Source: Escherichia coli 042 (GTDB lineage Bacteria > Pseudomonadota > Gammaproteobacteria > Enterobacterales > Enterobacteriaceae). Taken from it: a stretch of DNA of 64,000 nt. Location: NCBI RefSeq assembly GCF_000027125.1, contig NC_017626.1. The stretch is one strand, 5' to 3'. Below, in pieces: positions 781 through 38,060 of this stretch. Every line of letters begins with the position of its first letter. Position 1 is the stretch's first letter. Below the pieces are notes generated by a model that worked only from the letters and a program-made list of their open reading frames with translations, did no database searches and was not told where the DNA came from. A program made the position numbers and the translations under genes.

Positions 781-3700
781 TTACCAGTCGGCGTAAGGTA
801 TCAGCGGCTGCGGCGGTAAATCCATGTCACCCTGCCATCCGGCGGCGGAATAACGTACGTAGAGCAGGAAATGGCTGGGTGCGTAATCTTTCGCCTGCTG
901 GATATCAATTGCCGTGCCGACAAACCAGTTGGAAGTAACACGTCGTTCAAGTAATGCCCGCGCCGTGTAGCCAAAGCCCTGACTGCTGCCGCCATCGTTC
1001 GATTGCCGCGCAGCTTCTTCCTGCCAGTCGGTCGGGATCAGATTCATCAGCGGATAACGCGGCATGGTTTTGGTGCGTGAATGCGACCACGAGCCAGACG
1101 CCCCCAGCTCCCACGACCAGTTTTCCGTCCGCTCCCGCCACATCACCGGTATGGCAAACGACAGGTATTCCTGCGGGCTGTAGTAACCGCCCTGACCAAG
1201 TGAGTAGCCACTCAGGTCTTTGTCGTAATGCCAGATCATGTTGTTCAGGCCGATGGTGACGCGGCGATTGTTCTGGTTAATGACCTTATAGTAATAGCCC
1301 GTCATCCAGCGCACGCGCCAGTTATCTTCGACATTTTTACCGGTTAACTGATCACCGCTAAGCGATGCCCAGACGCCGTTTGCTTCACCTTTATCGTAGC
1401 TCAGGCTTAGCCCCACGCCGTCGGCACGCACGCCGCCCCATTTTTTCCCGGTATTGCTCGGGGAGTCTTTTTGCCCGCCAAAGGCCAGCAAAGAACTGGA
1501 GATGGGCCGACGATGGGCGTTAACGGTGTAACCCAGCGGCCCGATATCATCGCTGTAACTGATGCCGCCGACCACATCCACCACATTGAAGCCCATCGGC
1601 GTAGTGCCGATATCCCAGCTCCAGACGTCATTTCGCCAGCCGACCGCCACGCTGGCACCGGAATCCGACTGGCTGCGGTTGCCGCTACAGTCTTGTAATG
1701 TACAGGTGCCCCAGTTGTCATCCCATTTGCCATCGGCATTAGTGGAAAAACTGCCGACGTTCATATTGACGAAATCACTACGAAAGAACATCCGCCCGTC
1801 AGAATACGGCGCATCCACCTGCAACATAGTGGTGTGCGCTTTCAGATCGGAGTAACCACCGGTGCCGCTCGAACCCCAGTAATCGTGCTCGAGGGTGACA
1901 TTAAGATCCTGCTGACGATAGAGGTCCGCCGCATCGCTGCGCACGCCGCGTTTCAGCCAGTCATCTTTCTCGTCATTGCGGGTCAGTCGGGTAAAGGTGT
2001 CGTTATCCTGTGGACGCATCGTGGTCACACCGGATGCAACCATGGCGTCTTTGTAGGTTTCCAGCGCCTGCGTTGGATCGCCCGCCTGCGCTTCAAACTT
2101 CGCACCGTCGCGCAGTACCATCGCGCTTTCCATCGACGGCGGCTGAGATTTTGCCTGCGGGATCAACTTATTAAACGTCTGCTGCGCCGCTGCGGTATCG
2201 CCAAGCTGCGCCTGTGCCAGCGCCACGCGCCGCTGTGTGTTCAGCGAGGCGTTATCGGTAGCGGGCAGTTTCGCCAGCTGGCTACGTGCCGCCGCTTTGT
2301 CACCGGCAGCAATATCCACTTCCGTCAGACCAAGAATGGCATCGGCGTTAGTTGGCTCCCGCGTCAGGACATTCTGATATGCAGCGCGAGCGGCGGTGTA
2401 ATCACGTCGTTGTTGCGCCCAGTCAGCCAGCGTGAGGTCTATGCGCGTGGAAGGTGGTTGCTGGCGCAGCATCGCTTCCGCTTCAGCTTCTTTGCCGCTT
2501 TCTCGCAGGCGATTAGCGGTTTCCAGTACCTGATTGCTTTGCAGTCGATTAACCAGCTCCTGAATATTGCTGCTCCACTGCGCGCGCGGCAGGCTGTTGA
2601 TATGCGCCAGCGCCGCTCTGTCCTGGTCATGACCAGAGAGATACAGCCCGTAAGCGTAAACCTGCTCCGGGTCGTTCGGCTTCTGCTGCGCCAGATTACG
2701 CATTAACGTATCGGCCTGGCTGCGTTGTCCGGCCTGCCAGAGATCCTGCGAAAGTCGGTAAGTAATCCATACGCTGCCGGGGTCCAGCGCCAGTCGTTGC
2801 CGCTGAAGTGCTGCCGCCTGCGCCCATTTGCCCTGGTTTTCCAGTGCCTCTGCCTGCTGTGCCAGACGGTCGTTTTGCAGGCTGCGTTCGATATCATCAA
2901 TGCTTCGCCGCTGACTGGCAGAGAGCGAGGCGATAAACGCTTCAGCTTTTTCTGGCGATTGCTGGCGGTATATATTCGCCAGCCCGCGCACGGCGTTAGT
3001 GTTGCCGCTGTCCATACGCAAGGTCTGCTGATAATAACGTTCGGCGGCGGGATAATCTTTTCGCGCCATCGCCACATCGCCCAGCCCCAGCACTGCATAG
3101 CTGTCGGTGTTATCGACATTACGCGCCTGCTGGAACAGGCGTTCTGCCCGGTCAGGATTATTGGCTTTCAGCGCAGCATCGCCCTGCTGGATCGCCAGCC
3201 AGTAGCGGTTTACTTTCAGGAGACTGTTCCATTTGTCGTTGTTGCTGCTGTGCGGATCCAGGGCGAGGGCTTTTTCCAGATTCGCCACCGCATTGGCGCG
3301 ATCGCCTTTCTGAGAATACGCCTGGCCCAGCGCCCCCAGAGCCTCACTGTCTTTCGGGTTCGCCCGCACTGCCTGTTGTAGTTCGGGAATGGCTTTACCC
3401 GCCATACCAGAGTCCACCGCCGCTAAACCTTGCGCACGAGCGCGGAAAGCAGGGTCGGCCAGCTGTTTTTGCTGTTCTGCCAGTTGCGATTGCGCCGCAG
3501 CTACGCTATCGCCATCACTAAAGATCGAGAGATATTTTTTCAGCGCCGACACACTGGCATCGCTGACGGGCATGTCTTTAATCTGCCCGTACCAGATTTT
3601 AGAGGCCCCTTCGCGCCCGGCGTTTGATTTCGCCATCTGTTCCAGGACGGCAAAACCTTCGTCACGGCGATCGCTACTAAACAGCAATAGCGCCAGATTG

Positions 3701-13109: not shown

Positions 13110-13297
13110 TGACCATCAGCGATATCATTGAAATTATTGTCGTTTGCGCACTGATATTTTTCCCGCTGGGCTATCTGGCGCGGCACTCTTTGCGACGCAT
13201 TCGCGACACCTTACGTTTGTTCTTTGCTAAACCTCGTTATGTTAAACCGGCCGGGACGTTACGCCGCACGGAAAAAGCCAGGGCAACCAAAAAATGA
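13106..13297 (+). CDS. bcsF: BcsF (YhjT), small membrane protein, 63 aa
   Basis: ORF track 13106..13297; ATGA overlap with bcsE stop; hydrophobic N-terminus. Confidence 0.85.
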
Positions 13298-14973
13298 CTC
13301 AATTTACGCAAAATACCGCCATGCCTTCTTCCCTCTGGCAATACTGGCGCGGCCTTTCCGGCTGGAACTTCTATTTTCTGGTTAAGTTCGGCCTGTTGTG
13401 GGCGGGATATCTTAACTTCCATCCGCTCCTCAATCTGGTGTTTGCCGCGTTTCTGCTGATGCCCATTCCGCGCTACAGCCTGCATCGCTTACGCCACTGG
13501 ATTGCCCTGCCGATCGGCTTTGCTTTGTTCTGGCATGACACCTGGTTGCCTGGCCCGGAAAGCATAATGAGCCAGGGTTCGCAGGTGGCGGGGTTCAGTA
13601 CCGATTATTTAATCGACCTTGTCACACGCTTTATTAACTGGCAGATGATTGGGGCCATTTTTGTTTTATTAGTGGCCTGGTTATTCCTGTCACAATGGAT
13701 TCGCATTACCGTTTTTGTGGTTGCCATTCTGCTATGGCTGAACGTACTTACCCTGGCGGGACCAAGTTTCTCCTTGTGGCCAGCCGGTCAACCGACGACC
13801 ACTGTAACAACGACGGGTGGCAACGCAGCGGCAACCGTTGCGGCGACGGGTGGCGCACCGGTAGTGGGTGATATGCCCGCACAAACTGCACCGCCAACAA
13901 CGGCGAACCTTAACGCCTGGCTGAATAATTTCTATAACGCGGAGGCGAAACGTAAATCGACCTTCCCGTCTTCGCTGCCCGCTGATGCTCAACCATTTGA
14001 ACTACTGGTGATTAATATCTGTTCGCTTTCCTGGTCGGATATTGAAGCCGCCGGGTTGATGTCGCATCCGCTGTGGTCGCATTTCGATATTGAGTTCAAG
14101 AACTTTAACTCCGCCACCTCCTACAGTGGCCCGGCGGCGATCCGTTTACTGCGCGCCAGCTGCGGGCAGACTTCGCACACTAATCTGTATCAACCGGCAA
14201 ATAATGACTGCTATCTGTTTGATAACCTGTCGAAACTGGGCTTTACCCAGCACCTGATGATGGGACATAACGGCCAGTTCGGCGGTTTTTTGAAAGAAGT
14301 TCGCGAAAATGGCGGCATGCAGACCGAATTGATGGATCAAACAAATCTGCCGATTATTTTGCTGGGCTTTGATGGTTCGCCGGTTTATGACGATACCGCC
14401 GTGCTTAACCGCTGGCTGGACGTTACCGAAAAAGATAAAAACAGCCGTAGTGCCACGTTCTACAACACGCTTCCACTGCATGACGGCAACCATTATCCGG
14501 GCGTCAGCAAAACAGCGGATTACAAAGCGCGGGCGCAGAAATTCTTTGATGAACTGGACGCCTTCTTTACTGAACTGGAGAAATCGGGTCGTAAAGTGAT
14601 GGTGGTCGTGGTGCCGGAACACGGCGGCGCGCTGAAGGGCGACAGAATGCAGGTATCTGGCCTACGTGATATCCCTAGCCCGTCTATCACAGACGTCCCC
14701 GTTGGGGTGAAATTCTTCGGCATGAAGGCACCACATCAGGGGGCACCGATTGTCATCGACCAACCGAGCAGCTTCCTGGCTATCTCCGATCTGGTGGTTC
14801 GCGTTCTTGATGGCAAGATTTTCTCCGAAGACAATGTTGACTGGAAAAAACTCACCAGTGGGTTGCCACAAACAGCACCGGTCTCCGAGAACTCAAATGC
14901 AGTAGTTATTCAATACCAGGATAAACCGTACGTTCGCCTGAACGGCGGCGACTGGGTGCCTTACCCGCAATAA
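13294..14973 (+). CDS. bcsG: BcsG (YhjU), membrane phosphoethanolamine transferase for pEtN-cellulose, 559 aa
   Basis: ORF track 13294..14973; N-terminal TM segments, central Thr/Ala/Pro-rich linker, C-terminal sulfatase-like domain. Confidence 0.95.
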
Positions 14974-14978
14974 GAACG

Positions 14979-15010
14979 AAAAAGGCCGCAGAGTTTCACC
15001 CCTGCGGCCT
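14979..15010 (-). terminator. rho-independent terminator hairpin of first ldr copy (also downstream of bcsG)
   Basis: Inverted repeat ggccgcag...ctgcggcc followed on the minus strand by a T-run; same element repeats in every LDR unit. Confidence 0.5.
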
Positions 15011-15059
15011 GATCCGGGCGCAAATTGCCATTACGGCAGCCTGACGCCCGCATGACACG

Positions 15060-15167
15060 TTACTTCCGCTTATTCAGCGAGTTCACGATCAGACTGGCAA
15101 GAATGCCAGCAATGACCGGAGCCGCTAAATCATGCCAGAAGGCCATGCCCAGTTCTGCGAGCGTCAT
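15060..15167 (-). CDS. ldrD: Ldr type I toxin peptide, copy 1 (35 aa: MTLAELGMAFWHDLAAPVIAGILASLIVNSLNKRK)
   Basis: C-terminal 35 codons of ORF 15060..15302; ATG at 15165-15167; matches LdrD family small hydrophobic toxin. Confidence 0.85.
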   Translation of the reverse strand: MTLAELGMAFWHDLAAPVIAGILASLIVNSLNKRK

Positions 15168-15215
15168 ATAGCCGCCTCTGTTGTAATGACAACGTTTCGC
15201 GGCTATTCTTGAGTT

Positions 15216-15282
15216 GTTTGGGTTCAAGATTAGCCCCCGTGATGTTGTCAGGTGCATACCTGCAACGTGCGGGGGTTTTCTC
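15216..15282 (+). ncRNA. rdlD: Rdl antisense RNA (antitoxin), copy 1; coordinates approximate
   Basis: Plus-strand candidate promoter ttgtaa-N17-tattct at 15181-15209, transcript ending at hairpin cccccgt...acgtgcgggggttttct (~15271-15282); antisense to the ldr mRNA leader. Confidence 0.4.
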
Positions 15283-15542
15283 TCTCCAGCAACCAATGCC
15301 ACCAGGGATTAAGCCCCCGCAACATTGCGCCTCACCGGAACCCTTCCGGCTTGCCGCTGATTCTACGGCCATTTTTGTTCGTCGAAATCCATCACTTCTT
15401 CACTCTGTGCTGCGCATTCCGCAGAATATTATCCGCTTGCAGCCGTTGCATTTTTCTTACGAAAAAGGCCGCAGAGTTTCACCTCTGCGGCCTGGTCCGG
15501 GCGCAAATTGCCATTACGGCAGCCTGACGCCCGTCTGACACG

Positions 15543-15650
15543 TTACTTCCGCTTATTCAGCCAGTTCACGATCATGCTGGCAAGAATGCCAGCAATGACC
15601 GGAGCCGCTAAATCATGCCAGAAGGCCATGCCCAGCTCTGCGAGCGTCAT
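15543..15650 (-). CDS. ldrD: Ldr type I toxin peptide, copy 2 (35 aa, ...AGILASMIVNWLNKRK)
   Basis: Hand translation; ATG at 15648-15650, stop 15543-15545; absent from ORF track because the extended ORF is under 60 aa. Confidence 0.8.
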   Translation of the reverse strand: MTLAELGMAFWHDLAAPVIAGILASMIVNWLNKRK

Positions 15651-15698
15651 ATAGCCGCCAGTGTTGTAATGACAACGTTTCGCGGCTATTCTTGAGTT

Positions 15699-15765
15699 GT
15701 GTAGGTTCAAGAATGGCCCCCGTCATATTGTCAGGTGAATACCTGCAACGTGCGGGGGTTTTCTC
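15699..15765 (+). ncRNA. rdlD: Rdl antisense RNA, copy 2; placed by 483-bp periodicity
   Basis: Same offset from ldr stop as copy 1; homologous sequence with the same terminator hairpin. Confidence 0.35.
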
Positions 15766-16025
15766 TCTCCAGCAACCAATGCCACCAGGGATTAAGCCCC
15801 CGCAACATTGCGCCTCACCGGAACCCTTCCGGCTTGCCGCTGATTCTACGACTGTTTTTCTGTTCCGAAATCCATCACTTCTTCACTCTGTGCTGCGCAT
15901 TCCGCAGAATATTATCCGCTTGCAGCCGTTGCATTTTTCTTACGAAAAAGGCCGCAGAGTTTTATCCCTGCGGCCTGATCCGGGCGCAAATTGCCATTAC
16001 GGCAGCCTGACGCCCGTCTGACACG

Positions 16026-16133
16026 TTACTTCTGCTTGTTCAGCCAGTTCACGATCATGCTGGCAAGAATGCCAGCAATGACCGGAGCCGCTAAATCGTG
16101 CCAGAAGGCCATGCCCAGCTCTGCGAGCGTCAT
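16026..16133 (-). CDS. ldrD: Ldr type I toxin peptide, copy 3 (35 aa, ...MIVNWLNKQK)
   Basis: C-terminal 35 codons of ORF 16026..16268. Confidence 0.85.
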   Translation of the reverse strand: MTLAELGMAFWHDLAAPVIAGILASMIVNWLNKQK

Positions 16134-16181
16134 ATAGCCGCCTCTGTTGTAATGACAACGTTTCGCGGCTATTCTTGAGTT

Positions 16182-16248
16182 GTGTAGGTTCAAGAATGGC
16201 CCCCGTGATGTTGTCAGGTGCATACCTGCAACGTGCGGGGGTTTTCTC
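16182..16248 (+). ncRNA. rdlD: Rdl antisense RNA, copy 3; placed by periodicity
   Basis: Same offset as copy 1. Confidence 0.35.
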
Positions 16249-16508
16249 TCTCCAGCAACCAATGCCACCAGGGATTAAGCCCCCGCAACATTGCGCCTCA
16301 CCGGAACCCTTCCGGCTTGCCGCTGATTCTACGACTGTTTTTCTGTTCCGAAATCCATCACTTCTTCACTCTGTGCTGCGCATTCCGCAGAATATTATCC
16401 GCTTGCAGCCGTTGCATTTTTCTTACGAAAAAGGCCGCAGAGTTTCACCTCTGCGGCCTGGTCCGGGCGCAAATTGCCATTACGGCAGCCTGACGCCCGT
16501 CTGACACG

Positions 16509-16616
16509 TTACTTCCGCTTGTTCAGCCAGTTCACGATCATGCTGGCAAGAATGCCAGCAATGACCGGAGCCGCTAAATCATGCCAGAAGGCCATGCCCA
16601 GTTCTGCGAGCGTCAT
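16509..16616 (-). CDS. ldrD: Ldr type I toxin peptide, copy 4 (35 aa, ...MIVNWLNKRK)
   Basis: C-terminal 35 codons of ORF 16509..16751. Confidence 0.85.
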   Translation of the reverse strand: MTLAELGMAFWHDLAAPVIAGILASMIVNWLNKRK

Positions 16617-16664
16617 ATAGCCGCCTGAGTTGTAATGACAACGTTTCGCGGCTATTCTTGAATG

Positions 16665-16731
16665 GTCTAGATGCAAGAATGGCCCCCGTGGTGTTGTCAG
16701 GTGCATACCTGCAACGTGCGGGGGTTTTCTC
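16665..16731 (+). ncRNA. rdlD: Rdl antisense RNA, copy 4; placed by periodicity
   Basis: Same offset as copy 1. Confidence 0.35.
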
Positions 16732-16991
16732 TCTCCAGCAACCAATGCCACCAGGGATTAAGCCCCCGCAACATTGCGCCTCACCGGAACCCTTCCGGCT
16801 TGCCGCTGATTCTACGGCCATTTTTGTTCGTCGAAATCCATCACTTCTTCACTCTGTGCTGCGCATTCCGCAGAATATTATCCGCTTGCAGCCGTTGCAT
16901 TTTTCTTACGAAAAAGGCCGCAGAGTTTTATCCCTGCGGCCTGATCCGGGCGCAAATTGCCATTACGGCAGCCTGACGCCCGTCTGACACG

Positions 16992-17099
16992 TTACTTCTG
17001 CTTGTTCAGCCAGTTCACGATCATGCTGGCAAGAATGCCAGCAATGACCGGAGCCGCTAAATCGTGCCAGAAGGCCATGCCCAGCTCTGCGAGCGTCAT
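16992..17099 (-). CDS. ldrD: Ldr type I toxin peptide, copy 5 (35 aa, ...MIVNWLNKQK)
   Basis: C-terminal 35 codons of ORF 16992..17267. Confidence 0.85.
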   Translation of the reverse strand: MTLAELGMAFWHDLAAPVIAGILASMIVNWLNKQK

Positions 17100-17147
17100 A
17101 TAGCCGCCTCTGTTGTAATGACAACGTTTCGCGGCTATTCTTGAGTT

Positions 17148-17214
17148 GTGTAGGTTCAAGAATGGCCCCCGTGATGTTGTCAGGTGCATACCTGCAACGT
17201 GCGGGGGTTTTCTC
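17148..17214 (+). ncRNA. rdlD: Rdl antisense RNA, copy 5; placed by periodicity
   Basis: Same offset as copy 1. Confidence 0.35.
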
Positions 17215-17574
17215 TCTCCAGCAACCAATGCCACCAGGGATAAAGCCCCCGCAACATTGCGCCTCACCGGAACCTTTCCGGCTTGCCGCTGATTCTACGA
17301 TTGCTTTTTACCGTCAGCACCCGGCAATCTTCCTCATTGCGCGATGCCTTCCAGCTTAATTTCTTTATTTGCAATAGTTGCAGTTCATATCCGGGCTGAC
17401 TCCAGACTGGTAGTGAAATGCGCAATTTTGTAGAATTGCGCCTCCTCGCGACCTCCCCAGTGAATCTGTTGCCTCATTTTTTACATACTGCGTATTCGAC
17501 TTCTCCACCTGTTGCGCAAGAGAAACTGGGTTTATTCATTTTTGCGAGGCCGACTTCTTTCTGGACAGGACTTT

Positions 17575-18846
17575 ATGCAGCACAACACACTACCGAAACA
17601 CGATCAGAAATTGCCGTTTACACGCTACGACTTCGGCTGGGTTTTATTATGCATAGGCATGGCGATTGGTGCCGGAACCGTGCTGATGCCAGTACAAATT
17701 GGCTTGAAGGGAATTTGGGTATTTATTACCGCAGCGATCATTGCTTATCCTGCCACCTGGGTAGTGCAGGACATTTATTTAAAAACCCTTTCTGAAAGCG
17801 ATTCCTGTAATGACTACACCGATATTATCAGTCATTACCTGGGGAAGAACTGGGGAATTTTCCTCGGGGTTATCTACTTTTTGATGATTATCCACGGGAT
17901 TTTTATCTACTCTCTCTCCGTGGTTTTCGACAGCGCCTCGTACCTGAAAACCTTCGGTTTAACCGATGCCGATCTTTCACAATCTCTACTTTATAAAGTC
18001 GCCATTTTCGCCGTACTGGTGGCGATTGCGTCTGGTGGTGAACGATTACTGTTTAAGATTTCCGGGCCAATGGTGGTGGTCAAAGTAGGGATTATTGTCG
18101 TGTTCGGTTTTGCGATGATCCCGCACTGGAATTTCGCCAATATAACCGCCTTCCCGCAAGCCTCCGTCTTTTTCCGCGATGTCCTGCTTACCATTCCATT
18201 TTGCTTCTTTTCTGCAGTATTTATTCAGGTACTTAACCCAATGAATATTGCCTATCGTAAACGGGAAGCAGATAAAGTACTGGCAACCCGGCTCGCGCTG
18301 CGTACCCACCGAATTAGTTATATCACGCTCATCGCGGTGATCCTGTTTTTTGCCTTTTCGTTTACCTTCTCAATTAGCCACGAAGAAGCCGTTTCTGCCT
18401 TTGAACAAAATATCTCGGCACTGGCACTGGCCGCGCAGGTGATCCCTGGACATATCATTCATATCACCTCGACGGTGCTGAATATCTTTGCCGTACTGAC
18501 CGCATTCTTTGGCATTTATCTCGGTTTCCACGAGGCCATTAAAGGCATTATTCTCAATCTGTTAAGCCGAATCATTGATACCAAGAAAATTAACTCACGC
18601 GTGCTGACTCTGGCGATCTGCGCTTTTATCGTCATTACGTTGACGATTTGGGTTTCGTTTCGTGTATCGGTGCTGGTGTTCTTTCAGTTGGGAAGCCCGT
18701 TATATGGCATTGTGTCGTGCCTCATTCCATTTTTCCTGATCTATAAAGTCGCACAACTGGAAAAACTTCGCGGGTTTAAAACCTGGCTGATTCTGCTGTA
18801 CGGCATTTTGCTATGCTTGTCGCCACTGTTGAAGCTGATTGAGTAA
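17575..18846 (+). CDS. yhjV: YhjV, putative amino-acid permease (HAAAP family), 423 aa
   Basis: ORF track 17512..18846; start placed at ATG 17575 ([13 protein letters not shown]...); polytopic membrane protein. Confidence 0.85.
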
Positions 18847-25267: not shown

Positions 25268-25356
25268 AAAATGTGTGGTGTGTAGGTCGAATAAGGCGGT
25301 CGCGCCGCATCCGACAATGGGCCGGCACATTTGCCTGATGCGACGCTGGCGCGTCT
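25268..25356. repeat. REP/BIME element (two REP palindromes) upstream of the proK-proximal repeats
   Basis: ggtcgaataaggcggtcgcgccgcatccgaca and gcctgatgcgacgctggcgcgtcttatcaggcctac. Confidence 0.65.
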
Positions 25357-25794
25357 TATCAGGCCTACGTCGAATCGAACCTCCCTGCCCCCGGAAGTTC
25401 TCATCCTCTTCAGGCCGCAGAAAGCAAAAAACCAGCCCGTAGGCTGGTTTTTCTAAATTGGTCGGTGATAGAGGATTACTCGCCACTTCGTGGCTCGCCC
25501 TGCGGGCCGTTGCTGGCGCAACGTTCTCTCGCTTCGCTCGAGTCGAATCTCCCTGCCCCCGGAGGTTCTCATCCTCATAGGCTACAAATGCAAAAAAGCC
25601 TGCTCGCTGAGCAGGCTTTTCGAATTTGGTCGGTGCCAGAGGATTACTCGCCACTTCGTGGCTCGCCCTGCGGGCCGTTGCTGGCGCAACGTTCTCTCGC
25701 TTCGCTCGAGTCGAACCTCCCTGCCCCCGGAGGTTCTCATCCTCATGGGCTACAAATGCAAAAAAGCCTGCTCGCTGAGCAGGCTTTTCGAATT
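25357..25794. repeat. tandem degenerate repeats (~92 + 166 + 168 bp) downstream of proK, each with a terminator-like hairpin, a T-arm-like GGTTCGA motif and a copy of the last ~19 nt of tRNA-Pro
   Basis: tggtcggtg(a/c)(t/c)agaggatt occurs at ~25449, ~25617 and 25795 (the last is the real tRNA 3' end); the intervening sequence is about 97-98% identical between the two full units. Confidence 0.8.
25762..25790 (-). terminator. rho-independent terminator just downstream of proK
   Basis: Minus-strand gcctgctcagcgagcaggc followed by a T-run (tttttt), 5 bp after the tRNA 3' end. Confidence 0.6.
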
Positions 25795-25871
<77 letters not shown>

Positions 25872-37029: not shown

Positions 37030-37227
37030 TGTTGCATCACCCGCCAATGCGTGGCTTAATGCACATCAACGGTTTGACGTACAGACCATTAAAGCAGTGT
37101 AGTAAGGCAAGTCCCTTCAAGAGTTATCGTTGATACCCCTCGTAGTGCACATTCCTTTAACGCTTCAAAATCTGTAAAGCACGCCATATCGCCGAAAGGC
37201 ACACTTAATTATTAAAGGTAATACACT
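37030..37227 (+). promoter_or_regulatory. cspA promoter (AT-rich UP element, -35 ttgcat, -10 cttaat) and long 5' UTR with cold-box region
   Basis: ttgcatcacccgccaatgcgtggcttaatgcacatcaacggtttgacgtacagacc... about 160 nt upstream of the cspA ATG, consistent with the known long cspA leader. Confidence 0.6.
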
Positions 37228-37440
37228 ATGTCCGGTAAAATGACTGGTATCGTAAAATGGTTCAACGCTGACAAAGGCTTCGGCTTCATCACTCCTGACG
37301 ATGGCTCTAAAGACGTGTTCGTACACTTCTCTGCTATCCAGAACGATGGTTACAAATCTCTGGACGAAGGTCAGAAAGTGTCCTTCACCATCGAAAGCGG
37401 CGCTAAAGGCCCGGCAGCTGGCAACGTAACCAGCCTGTAA
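37228..37440 (+). CDS. cspA: major cold-shock protein CspA, 70 aa
   Basis: ORF track; [23 protein letters not shown]... with RNP motifs. Confidence 0.97.
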
Positions 37441-37465
37441 TCTCTGCTTAAAAGCACAGAATCTA

Positions 37466-37497
37466 AGATCCCTGCCATTTGGCGGGGATTTTTTTAT
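37466..37497 (+). terminator. cspA rho-independent terminator
   Basis: ccctgccatttggcgggg hairpin followed by ttttttt. Confidence 0.6.
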
Positions 37498-37627: not shown

Positions 37628-37780
37628 TTACTCTTTCAATTTGCAGGCTAAAAACGCCGCCAGCTCATAACTCTCCTGTTTAATATGCAATTCACACAGT
37701 GAATCTCTTATCATCCAGGTGAAAAATAAAAGCGTGAAACAAATCACTATTAAAGAAAGTAATCTATATTTCTGCGGCAT
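37628..37780 (-). CDS. hokA: HokA type I toxin (Hok/Gef family), 50 aa, intact
   Basis: C-terminal 50 codons of ORF 37628..37840: MPQKYRLLSLIVICFTLLFFTWMIRDSLCELHIKQESYELAAFLACKLKE. Confidence 0.85.
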   Translation of the reverse strand: MPQKYRLLSLIVICFTLLFFTWMIRDSLCELHIKQESYELAAFLACKLKE

Positions 37781-37840
37781 TCCCAGCCCCCTGTGTTGAT
37801 TTCCAACGAGTAAGAGGCTAACCTTATGGTGTCTATGCAT
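37628..37840 (-). CDS. mokA: MokA, overlapping reading frame that translationally couples hokA, 70 aa
   Basis: ORF track 37628..37840, co-terminal with hokA as in hok/mok/sok loci. Confidence 0.6.
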   Translation of the reverse strand: MHRHHKVSLLLVGNQHRGLGMPQKYRLLSLIVICFTLLFFTWMIRDSLCELHIKQESYELAAFLACKLKE

Positions 37841-37886
37841 AGAGGGGCCTCACTTTGATTTATAGTCAGGTGGGGCTTTTCTCTGT
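37822..37886 (+). ncRNA. sokA: putative SokA antisense RNA (antitoxin); coordinates approximate
   Basis: Plus-strand region antisense to the mokA start/leader, ending at hairpin gcctcac...gtggggc followed by ttttctct. Confidence 0.3.
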
Positions 37887-38060
37887 CTGCCTTTCGGTGA
37901 ATACCTGAGACAAACAGTCTCAAGCACCCGCAGCTATTCTAGCTTAATAAGTTCGTTTCTTCTCCTTGATATAATCCTAAAAAAATCTCATAAAATTAAT
38001 ATATGAGACAATCTTTATTCAGCAGAAGATTATTAAAGGTTGCTCTATTATTTAGCGATA

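Follow-up and report, generated by a model that had tools for sequence, protein, structure and literature searches.

The window analysed here, a stretch of 64,000 nucleotides from Escherichia coli 042 (NC_017626.1), carries a five-unit allele of the LDR-D toxin-antitoxin element (ldrD/rdlD) between bcsG (yhjU) and yhjV. We consider it very likely that this allele is an old mosaic, drawn from a polymorphic locus that has been reshaped by unequal recombination. Tandem Repeats Finder reported a single array at 14976-17309 with a period of 483, 4.8 copies, 95% matches and zero indels. A repeat search of the window placed five copies head to tail with start-to-start distances of 483, 483, 483 and 483, confirming the five units and the exact 483-bp period described in an earlier sequence-only reading. 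The ldr genes lie on the minus strand throughout. The array consists of four full 483-bp units (u1, 14976-15458; u2, 15459-15941; u3, 15942-16424; u4, 16425-16907) and a terminal 402-bp unit (u5, 16908-17309), in which homology stops at 17309, immediately upstream of the ldr -10 box. The right-hand end falls at the same point of the unit in every array examined. The flanking ORFs, bcsG on the left (13294-14973, plus strand) and yhjV on the right (17575-18846, plus strand), together with alignment to K-12, B, O157 and other strains, identify this position as the LDR-D locus. The bcsG stop and the yhjV start are separated by 2,601 bp here, compared with 669 bp in K-12. Each unit has the composition of an LDR unit, a repeat of about 0.5 kb (483 bp here) with both genes and two terminators.

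An intact 35-amino-acid Ldr ORF was found in five of five units. The u1 ORF (15060-15167) encodes MTLAELGMAFWHDLAAPVIAGILASLIVNSLNKRK, a variant with the changes M26L and W30S that is identical to RefSeq WP_000170736.1 and is also present in strains A10, R32 and CUVET17. The u2 product (15543-15650) is of the WP_001295224.1 type and ends in ASMIVNWLNKRK, as does that of u4 (16509-16616), while the u3 product (16026-16133) is of the WP_000170743.1 type and ends in ASMIVNWLNKQK, as does that of u5 (16992-17099). The Pfam family PF13940 (Ldr_toxin) covers residues 1-35 of 35 in the most divergent copy, u1 (E=1.2e-23). We relied on Pfam for the family assignment because an NCBIfam HMM scan of three Ldr variants returned nothing at E<=0.001 and, at E<=10, only a sub-threshold Fst match (13.8 bits, with the cut-off at 26). 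RefSeq labels the identical proteins as Ldr family and annotates the same genes at the bcsG-yhjV locus in other strains. Toxicity of Ldr on over-production, relieved by the cognate Rdl, has been demonstrated for K-12 LdrD/RdlD only (PMC4147584). A conserved tryptophan is a signature of the Ldr/Fst superfamily (PMC2887945), and the W30S change leaves the u1 protein without it, so the toxicity of u1 is uncertain. In the Shine-Dalgarno region, CTGG replaces GAGG in u2 and the u4 sequence is CAGG. Judging from these substitutions, some copies (u1, u2 and u4) may be attenuated.

Five full-length matches to the Rfam family RF01813 (rdlD) were detected on the plus strand, scoring 78-90 bits where the gathering score is 50. 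They are located at 15216-15281 in u1 (90.4 bits), 15699-15764 in u2 (78.3 bits, with three changes in the hairpin), 16182-16247 in u3 (83.8 bits), 16665-16730 in u4 (81.8 bits) and 17148-17213 in u5 (83.8 bits, identical to the u3 rdl). Classified by the 5' tail of the RNA, the five rdl genes are of types A, B, B, C and B, respectively. Each match lies on the strand opposite its own ldr gene, 49-114 nt upstream of the ldr ATG and opposite the ldr 5' UTR. The u1 Rdl is predicted to fold (-31.7 kcal/mol, z=-5.0) into a single-stranded 5' tail of about 11-16 nt followed by a long terminator hairpin, and all five RNAs have a predicted fold in which a long hairpin follows a 5' tail (z from -3.9 to -5.0). 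The array contains ten terminator-like hairpins, one ldr and one rdl hairpin per unit, compared with 3.1 expected from shuffled sequences. The ldr intrinsic terminator of u1 (14983-15010, minus strand) has an 11-bp stem followed by TTTTCG, and its counterparts in u2-u5 lie on the same strand at 15466-15493, 15949-15976, 16432-16459 and 16915-16942. The five Rfam matches and the two hairpins per unit bear out the claim that every unit has its own Rdl and terminator, and Pfam, Rfam and the locus agree on the identity of the element as LDR-D, a toxin-antitoxin system of type I.

A generic sigma-70 consensus scan at a threshold of 9-of-12 returned no promoter in the array, so the ldr and rdl promoters were assigned by eye from invariant hexamers. 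The putative rdl promoter of u1 (15181-15209, plus strand; TTGTAA-17 nt-TATTCT) stops 7 nt before the Rfam rdl start and overlaps the ldr ribosome-binding region of the opposite strand; it is invariant in five of five units, displaced by 483 in each. The putative ldr -10 box, TAGAAT, is likewise unchanged in all five units (minus strand; 15360-15365 in u1, then 15843-15848, 16326-16331, 16809-16814 and 17292-17297 in u2-u5), and the ldr -35 region of u5 is supplied by unique flank sequence. With an intact ORF, a -10 box, an rdl promoter and both terminators each, all five units look functional.

By analogy with K-12 ldrD/rdlD, each 483-bp unit would work by itself as a type I toxin-antitoxin module, with a stable ldr mRNA and an unstable Rdl. 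The 35-amino-acid membrane toxin Ldr would be encoded by a minus-strand mRNA whose 5' UTR is long, and Rdl, a plus-strand antisense RNA of about 66 nt, would be transcribed from inside the ldr 5' UTR and pair with it, keeping the toxin untranslated. The proposed logic resembles that of hok/sok in the long 5' UTR, in an antisense RNA leaving the toxin ribosome-binding site uncovered, in a proposed leader ORF (mok in hok/sok, ldrX here) and in the antisense RNA's single-stranded 5' tail (PMC4147584, PMC8167048). It differs in that the toxins belong to another family and the coupling through ldrX is a proposed model. We searched the units for ldrX as an out-of-frame ORF running from the overlap of the 5' UTR and Rdl across the ldr start, and no such ORF was conserved with a plausible ribosome-binding site. 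The only common candidate is a 20-amino-acid ORF with a TTG start and without a Shine-Dalgarno sequence, which reaches 53 amino acids in u3 and u5. A conserved 25-amino-acid ORF, MLRGLNPWWHWLLERENPRTLQVCT, spans 15248-15325 in u1 and recurs at +483 in each of the others; it stops 81 nt before the ldr ATG and therefore does not match the published description of ldrX.

The LDR-D element of K-12 was described by Kawano et al. (2002, Mol Microbiol 45:333; cited in PMC4147584 and PMC5435950). The window shares with it the locus, the unit architecture and the Rfam and Pfam families, and differs from it by 1-3 residues of the peptide (K-12 has F3, the window L3), by having five units instead of one and by the absence from the window array of the K-12 Rdl-tail type, F. 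The statement of the sequence-only reading that K-12 has a single unit between bcsG and yhjV agrees with our alignment and with PMC5435950, and its placement of the K-12 three-unit set at a different locus agrees with PMC4147584. That set (LDR-A/B/C) belongs to the LdrB group (PMC2887945). It resembles the window array, as do Ibs/Sib and Zor/Orz, in that tandem type I toxin-antitoxin modules share one intergenic region (PMC4147584; PMC2943612; PMC8167048). Strain BL21(DE3) has three ldrD/rdlD pairs against the one in K-12 (PMC5435950), and the array of E. coli B and BL21(DE3) has the same locus and 483-bp period as that of the window, with three units of types F-D-A where the window has five of types A-B-B-C-B. 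More generally, Fozo et al. (2010) noted that Ldr loci are tandemly duplicated in a lineage-specific way (PMC2887945).

To determine copy number we used a split-flank BLAST search over 5,421 complete E. coli genomes and took copy-number shares from a systematic sample of them. In this sample, one unit was present in 21 genomes, two in 8, three in 20 and four in 8 (approximately 36%, 14%, 34% and 14%), making multi-unit arrays the majority state at about 64%, percentages that describe a clinically biased database and not natural populations. Strains with a single unit here include K-12 and O157:H7, and O104:H4 has a frameshift in one of its ldr copies. The flanks are joined within 2.2 kb, corresponding to at most four units, in 5,274 of the 5,421 genomes and within 2.7 kb in another 50, which have either five units or four together with a small insertion sequence. 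The distance between the flanks exceeds 2.7 kb in no more than 24 records, IS and HipA-type insertions included. By our estimate, five units are present in 20-50 genomes (0.4-0.9%), including at least 20 complete RefSeq genomes listed by name. Five units is thus not the common state that the sequence-only reading had allowed for; it is rare yet not unique. For instance, R32_14_1F (NZ_CP074749.1), CUVET17-1418, 2017-02-2CC, AF3 and MFDS1022581 all have five Ldr genes annotated at this locus in RefSeq, with a period of 483-484 bp and a last unit that differs from that of the window. The exact five-unit allele of the window was found in none of 5,426 genomes, the best five-unit match being 97.6% identical. 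E. coli therefore has a standing polymorphism at the LDR-D locus, with copy numbers from one to five, and the window array is a rare but ordinary allele of a well-known element.

The sequence-only reading regarded the copy number as uncertain, since tandem repeats of 483 bp are difficult for short-read assembly, and the longest exact repeat inside this array is 410 nt. The true number could then differ from five, through collapse or expansion of the repeat or through chimeric reads from a mixed culture. We regard such an artefact as highly improbable. Unit-specific variants bracket every unit, so the copies can be told apart, and a false expansion would give identical copies, whereas the units here match units of other strains, in some cases exactly. 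Furthermore, five-unit arrays with the same period are present in at least 20 independently finished genomes.

A comparison of array haplotypes directly shows unequal homologous recombination changing the copy number. In eight records, strain A10 being one of them, 4.4 kb of flanking sequence is 100% identical to the window, and all eight carry two units. The A10 array equals the window array minus exactly 1,449 bp, or three units. Coming from the left, A10 matches the window without a difference as far as 15479, and coming from the right as far back as 16692, which puts the junction inside a 237-nt stretch common to u1 and u4 (15243-15479, identical to 16692-16928). The single unit of K-12, in the same manner, differs from the three-unit array of strain B by the loss of exactly 966 bp, or two units, across a junction interval of 126 nt. 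Both cases uphold the suggestion that unequal recombination changes the copy number, and the change would be brought about by RecA-type homologous recombination between units. From these alignments, the K-12 single unit reads as a contraction of a strain-B-like three-unit array, and the nearest local relatives of the window array look like its deletion derivatives rather than its precursors. A10 was also considered as a near-isogenic relative of the source strain and rejected as such, as it is only 98.8-99.3% identical over the 64-kb window; the identical 4.4-kb flanks therefore represent a local haplotype.

That all eight of these records have only two units could also be taken as a sign of recent, strain-specific amplification, in which unequal sister-chromatid exchange took a one- or two-unit ancestor to five units and raised the dosage. 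This was in essence the proposal of the sequence-only reading, and part of the array does have a recent history: 334 nt of u3 and u5 show no difference, and the array has a 410-nt exact repeat at an offset of 966, so at least one recent internal duplication or conversion is real. However, a recent amplification would leave near-identical copies throughout, and the units differ from one another at 12-23 of 402 sites (about 2.5-5.7%), with only the u3/u5 pair, at 5 sites, nearly identical. Duplication of an A-B two-unit array cannot yield u2 and u4, which are separated from u1 and u5 by 17-23 sites, and tail type C of u4 and the Shine-Dalgarno variants of u2 and u4 also occur in unrelated strains. 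We therefore consider recent amplification very unlikely, and the claim of a recent local expansion does not hold for the array as a whole. Units of the window recur singly elsewhere, u1 being identical to u1 of A10 and u5 to u3 of TUM1226, and the order of Rdl-tail types, A-B-B-C-B, shares its first four positions with the five-unit strain R32_14_1F (A-B-B-C-D). The divergence between units and this common order indicate an old mosaic allele and not a fresh amplification, and within this old mosaic the near-identity of u3 and u5 appears to be the product of one recent internal event. Since all eight identical-flank records have two units, u2-u4 may have been gained by recombination with DNA of another strain instead of being ancestral. 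As to dosage, toxin and antitoxin genes multiply together, so net toxicity need not change.

Sequence diversity among units has two hot spots, one in the ldr -35 region and one in the 5' tail of Rdl, where pi is 0.22-0.25, compared with a mean of 0.045. The tails, with their target in the ldr 5' UTR, sort into discrete types, no fewer than 10 in number, and an array usually mixes types; tails A, B and C differ from one another at 3-6 of 19 nt. Related antisense RNAs in tandem type I systems can tell cognate targets apart (PMC4147584; PMC2943612; PMC8167048); the toxins of Ibs/Sib and Zor/Orz are unrelated to Ldr, and discrimination of this kind in LdrD-type units would be by analogy. It is possible, and we suggest it tentatively, that LDR-D arrays are assembled from a limited set of specificity cassettes in which the tail type makes each Rdl prefer its own ldr mRNA. 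If so, recombination would shuffle cassettes, strains would vary in dosage as well as in their set of independently controlled toxins, and the A-B-B-C-B array would form three independent control circuits. The locus would then be a natural system for studying how cross-talk is avoided among duplicated antisense-regulated toxins.

A related question is whether multi-unit arrays are kept by selection for several non-cross-reacting toxin-antitoxin pairs, with benefits such as stress or persistence responses or stabilisation of the bcs-dpp region, or are a neutral by-product of recombination. The hot spots and the discrete, mostly mixed tail types are in line with selection, as are the cognate-only repression documented for the tandem Ibs/Sib family (PMC2943612) and the suggestion of Fozo et al. 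that purifying selection may retain duplications. On the other hand, the single-unit state of about 36% of genomes, K-12 and O157:H7 included, the threefold occurrence of tail type B in the window array and the frameshifted copy in O104:H4 argue against it, and the hot spots might be mere unconstrained spacer. On balance, we find maintenance by selection rather doubtful.

For annotation, these results mean that the one-unit K-12 reference represents a contracted state and that carrying several LDR-D units is normal for E. coli. As a marker, the copy number of this locus changes fast, identical-flank strains differing by three units, and it needs careful handling in short-read assemblies and pangenome tools. 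In a scan of one genome per species with a 22-mer of the conserved Rdl hairpin, only four loci were recovered, each with 1-2 ldr genes. One of these loci is a 503-nt contig labelled Bacillus.

Tandem Repeats Finder resolved a single array at 14976-17309 between bcsG (13294-14973) and yhjV (17575-18846), with 4.8 copies, a period of 483, 95% matches and zero indels, and a repeat search of the window placed the five copies exactly 483 bp apart. This confirms the five tandem units of exact 483-bp period described by the sequence-only reading, and its naming of the element as LDR (ldr/rdl) agrees with Pfam and Rfam matches. We refer to the units as u1 to u5 from the bcsG side to the yhjV side, u5 being the 402-nt terminal unit. 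Every unit encodes a 35-aa ORF on the minus strand, MTLAELGMAFWHDLAAPVIAGILAS(L/M)IVN(S/W)LNK(R/Q)K, and Pfam Ldr_toxin (PF13940) spans the most divergent Ldr copy end to end (E=1.2e-23). Rfam rdlD matches each unit at full length on the plus strand with 78-90 bits (gathering score 50), 49-114 nt upstream of the respective ldr start. The predicted fold of all five Rdl sequences is a short single-stranded 5' tail and then a long hairpin ending in UUUUCU (z-scores -3.9 to -5.0), and every unit has a strong ldr terminator whose stem is 11 bp long. Two invariant motifs were read from the sequence: TAGAAT upstream of each 5' UTR, and TTGTAA-17-TATTCT, whose end lies 7 nt ahead of each rdl start. 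We infer that these are the ldr and rdl promoters, and they are termed putative because a generic promoter scan of the array returned none at its threshold. The ldr 5' UTR of every unit also contains a conserved minus-strand 25-aa ORF preceded by GAGG, MLRGLNPWWHWLLERENPRTLQVCT (15248-15325, and at +483 per further unit), which ends inside the Rdl-complementary region.

K-12 LdrD is toxic on over-production and its toxicity is relieved by RdlD co-expression; RdlD overlaps the long 5' UTR of ldrD, not the ribosome-binding site, and a hok/sok-like model with a leader ORF (ldrX) is proposed but unconfirmed (PMC4147584; PMC8167048). In vivo, ldrD and rdlD form duplexes processed by RNase III (PMC7373196). 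The sequence prerequisites of the K-12-type mechanism are present in the window units, which are predicted to be expressed and toxic, and a leader-ORF search of these units identified no convincing ldrX, the 25-aa ORF being an uncertain candidate. Some copies may differ in strength. The Shine-Dalgarno GAGG is replaced by CTGG in u2 and CAGG in u4, and the bcsG-proximal u1 ldr (15060-15167) carries M26L and W30S, the latter removing what Fozo et al. describe as a signature tryptophan of the Ldr/Fst superfamily (PMC2887945). Of the 18 strains examined, 9 have an S30 Ldr at the first array position, and in eight of these it is the exact u1 protein.

Over the 402 nt common to u1-u5, pairs of units differ at 12-23 sites, except u3 and u5, which differ at five sites, all at the distal edge; the longest exact repeat inside the array is 410 nt. 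Counterparts of single units exist in other strains. The first unit of A10 has exactly the sequence of u1, the last unit of TUM1226 has that of u5, and the fourth unit of R32_14_1F departs from u4 by seven differences. Typing of Rdl 5' ends gave A-B-B-C-B for the window and A-B-B-C-D for the five-unit array of R32_14_1F. The divergence of the units, their recurrence in other strains and this similar type order make it highly improbable that one or two units were amplified recently. An assembly artefact is likewise very unlikely, as the units are distinguishable and have matches in other strains in a similar order.

In eight records the 4.4 kb of flanking sequence is 100% identical to that of the window, but the array in every one of them has two units. 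Taking exactly 1,449 bp out of the window array yields the two-unit array of A10, which matches the window fully on the left side as far as 15479 and, apart from one mismatch, on the right side back to 16692. The junction therefore falls within a 237-nt stretch common to u1 and u4 (15243-15479 = 16692-16928). Over the 64-kb window A10 and the source strain share 98.8-99.3% identity and are not isogenic, and so the identical flanks represent a shared local haplotype. As u2 and u4 have their own variants, the simplest reading is that the two-unit allele derived from a five-unit allele by unequal homologous recombination; acquisition of u2-u4 from a different strain is a possible alternative. The single K-12 unit corresponds to the three-unit array of strain B with exactly 966 bp removed, and the junction falls in a 126-nt interval of shared sequence. 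The K-12 reference state, against which the window array looked unusual, is thus a contraction as well. The local expansion proposed from sequence alone was thus not borne out, as the units are diverged and individually matched elsewhere, and the two-unit relatives read as contractions. In all likelihood the array is an old and uncommon allele at a locus whose copy-number polymorphism is known, and unequal recombination has shaped it.

Copy-number polymorphism of the LDR-D locus, of which the array is an instance, is already known. BL21(DE3) has three ldrD/rdlD pairs between bcsG and yhjV versus one in K-12 (PMC5435950), and our strain B array of three units agrees with this count. Fozo et al. 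(2010) reported that Ldr loci are tandemly duplicated in a lineage-specific manner, with counts reaching 10 Ldr/Fst-family genes in one genome (PMC2887945). A BLAST search with the locus found matches in 5,425 of 5,426 complete E. coli genomes, and annotated arrays of 1, 2, 3, 4 and 5 Ldr genes were found between bcsG and yhjV. To count units, the two flanks were fused into an artificial query, whose pieces are merged only if their separation is no more than 500 bp above half the query length. The flanks merged in 5,274 of 5,421 genomes with a query of 3.4 kb (limit 2.2 kb, four units or fewer) and in 5,324 with one of 4.4 kb (limit 2.7 kb, five units or fewer). The number of five-unit genomes is therefore no higher than 50, and this bin also takes in other configurations, for example four units together with IS200C (GPEC673); five units are annotated in at least 20 genomes. 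No more than 24 records could contain either a large insertion or an array of six or more units. A systematic sample contained one unit in 21 genomes, two in 8, three in 20 and four in 8. Decayed or interrupted forms of the locus occur in other strains: O104:H4 has a frameshift in its fourth ldr (3234-3340 of the comparison locus, L017), IS200C lies between bcsG and the array in GPEC673 (7813-8271 of L004), and in AVS0456 the locus holds an inserted type II toxin-antitoxin module of the HipA family. An LdrD-type peptide and Rdl hairpin were also found on a 503-nt contig (NZ_JABWSY010000055.1) of an assembly labelled Bacillus sp.; the contig probably entered this assembly as E. coli contamination.

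In an alignment of 63 units from 18 strains (loci L001-L019), mean pi across the unit was 0.045, with two diversity hot spots. The ldr -35/upstream region, just upstream of the -10 box (u1 15366-15392, alignment columns 67-93), had a pi of about 0.25, and in the terminal unit the -35/spacer region comes from unique flank sequence. This diversity suggests that units may differ in ldr promoter strength. The single-stranded Rdl 5' tail (u1 15216-15234, same offset in u2-u5) had a pi of about 0.22 and at least 10 discrete types, and arrays are mostly mixed in type. Within the window, Rdl types have 3-6 differences in the first 19 nt versus only 0-4 in the remaining 47 nt. Cognate specificity set by the tail, as in Ibs/Sib, would produce this pattern, and an unconstrained spacer could do so equally.

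Elsewhere in the window, tRNA-Pro(CGG) (25795-25871, minus strand) is followed by two RtT-like repeats (25459-25592 and 25627-25762) and an naRNA4 match (25285-25365). IS1397 lies beside this tRNA gene in A10 and is absent from the window, where the alignment has a gap at 25350-25706. An Rfam sok match (120 bits, 37778-37929, minus strand), corresponding in position to the annotated hokA of A10, points to a second type I toxin-antitoxin system within the window. It adjoins a match to a cspA-type thermoregulator (498 bits, 37068-37495, plus strand).
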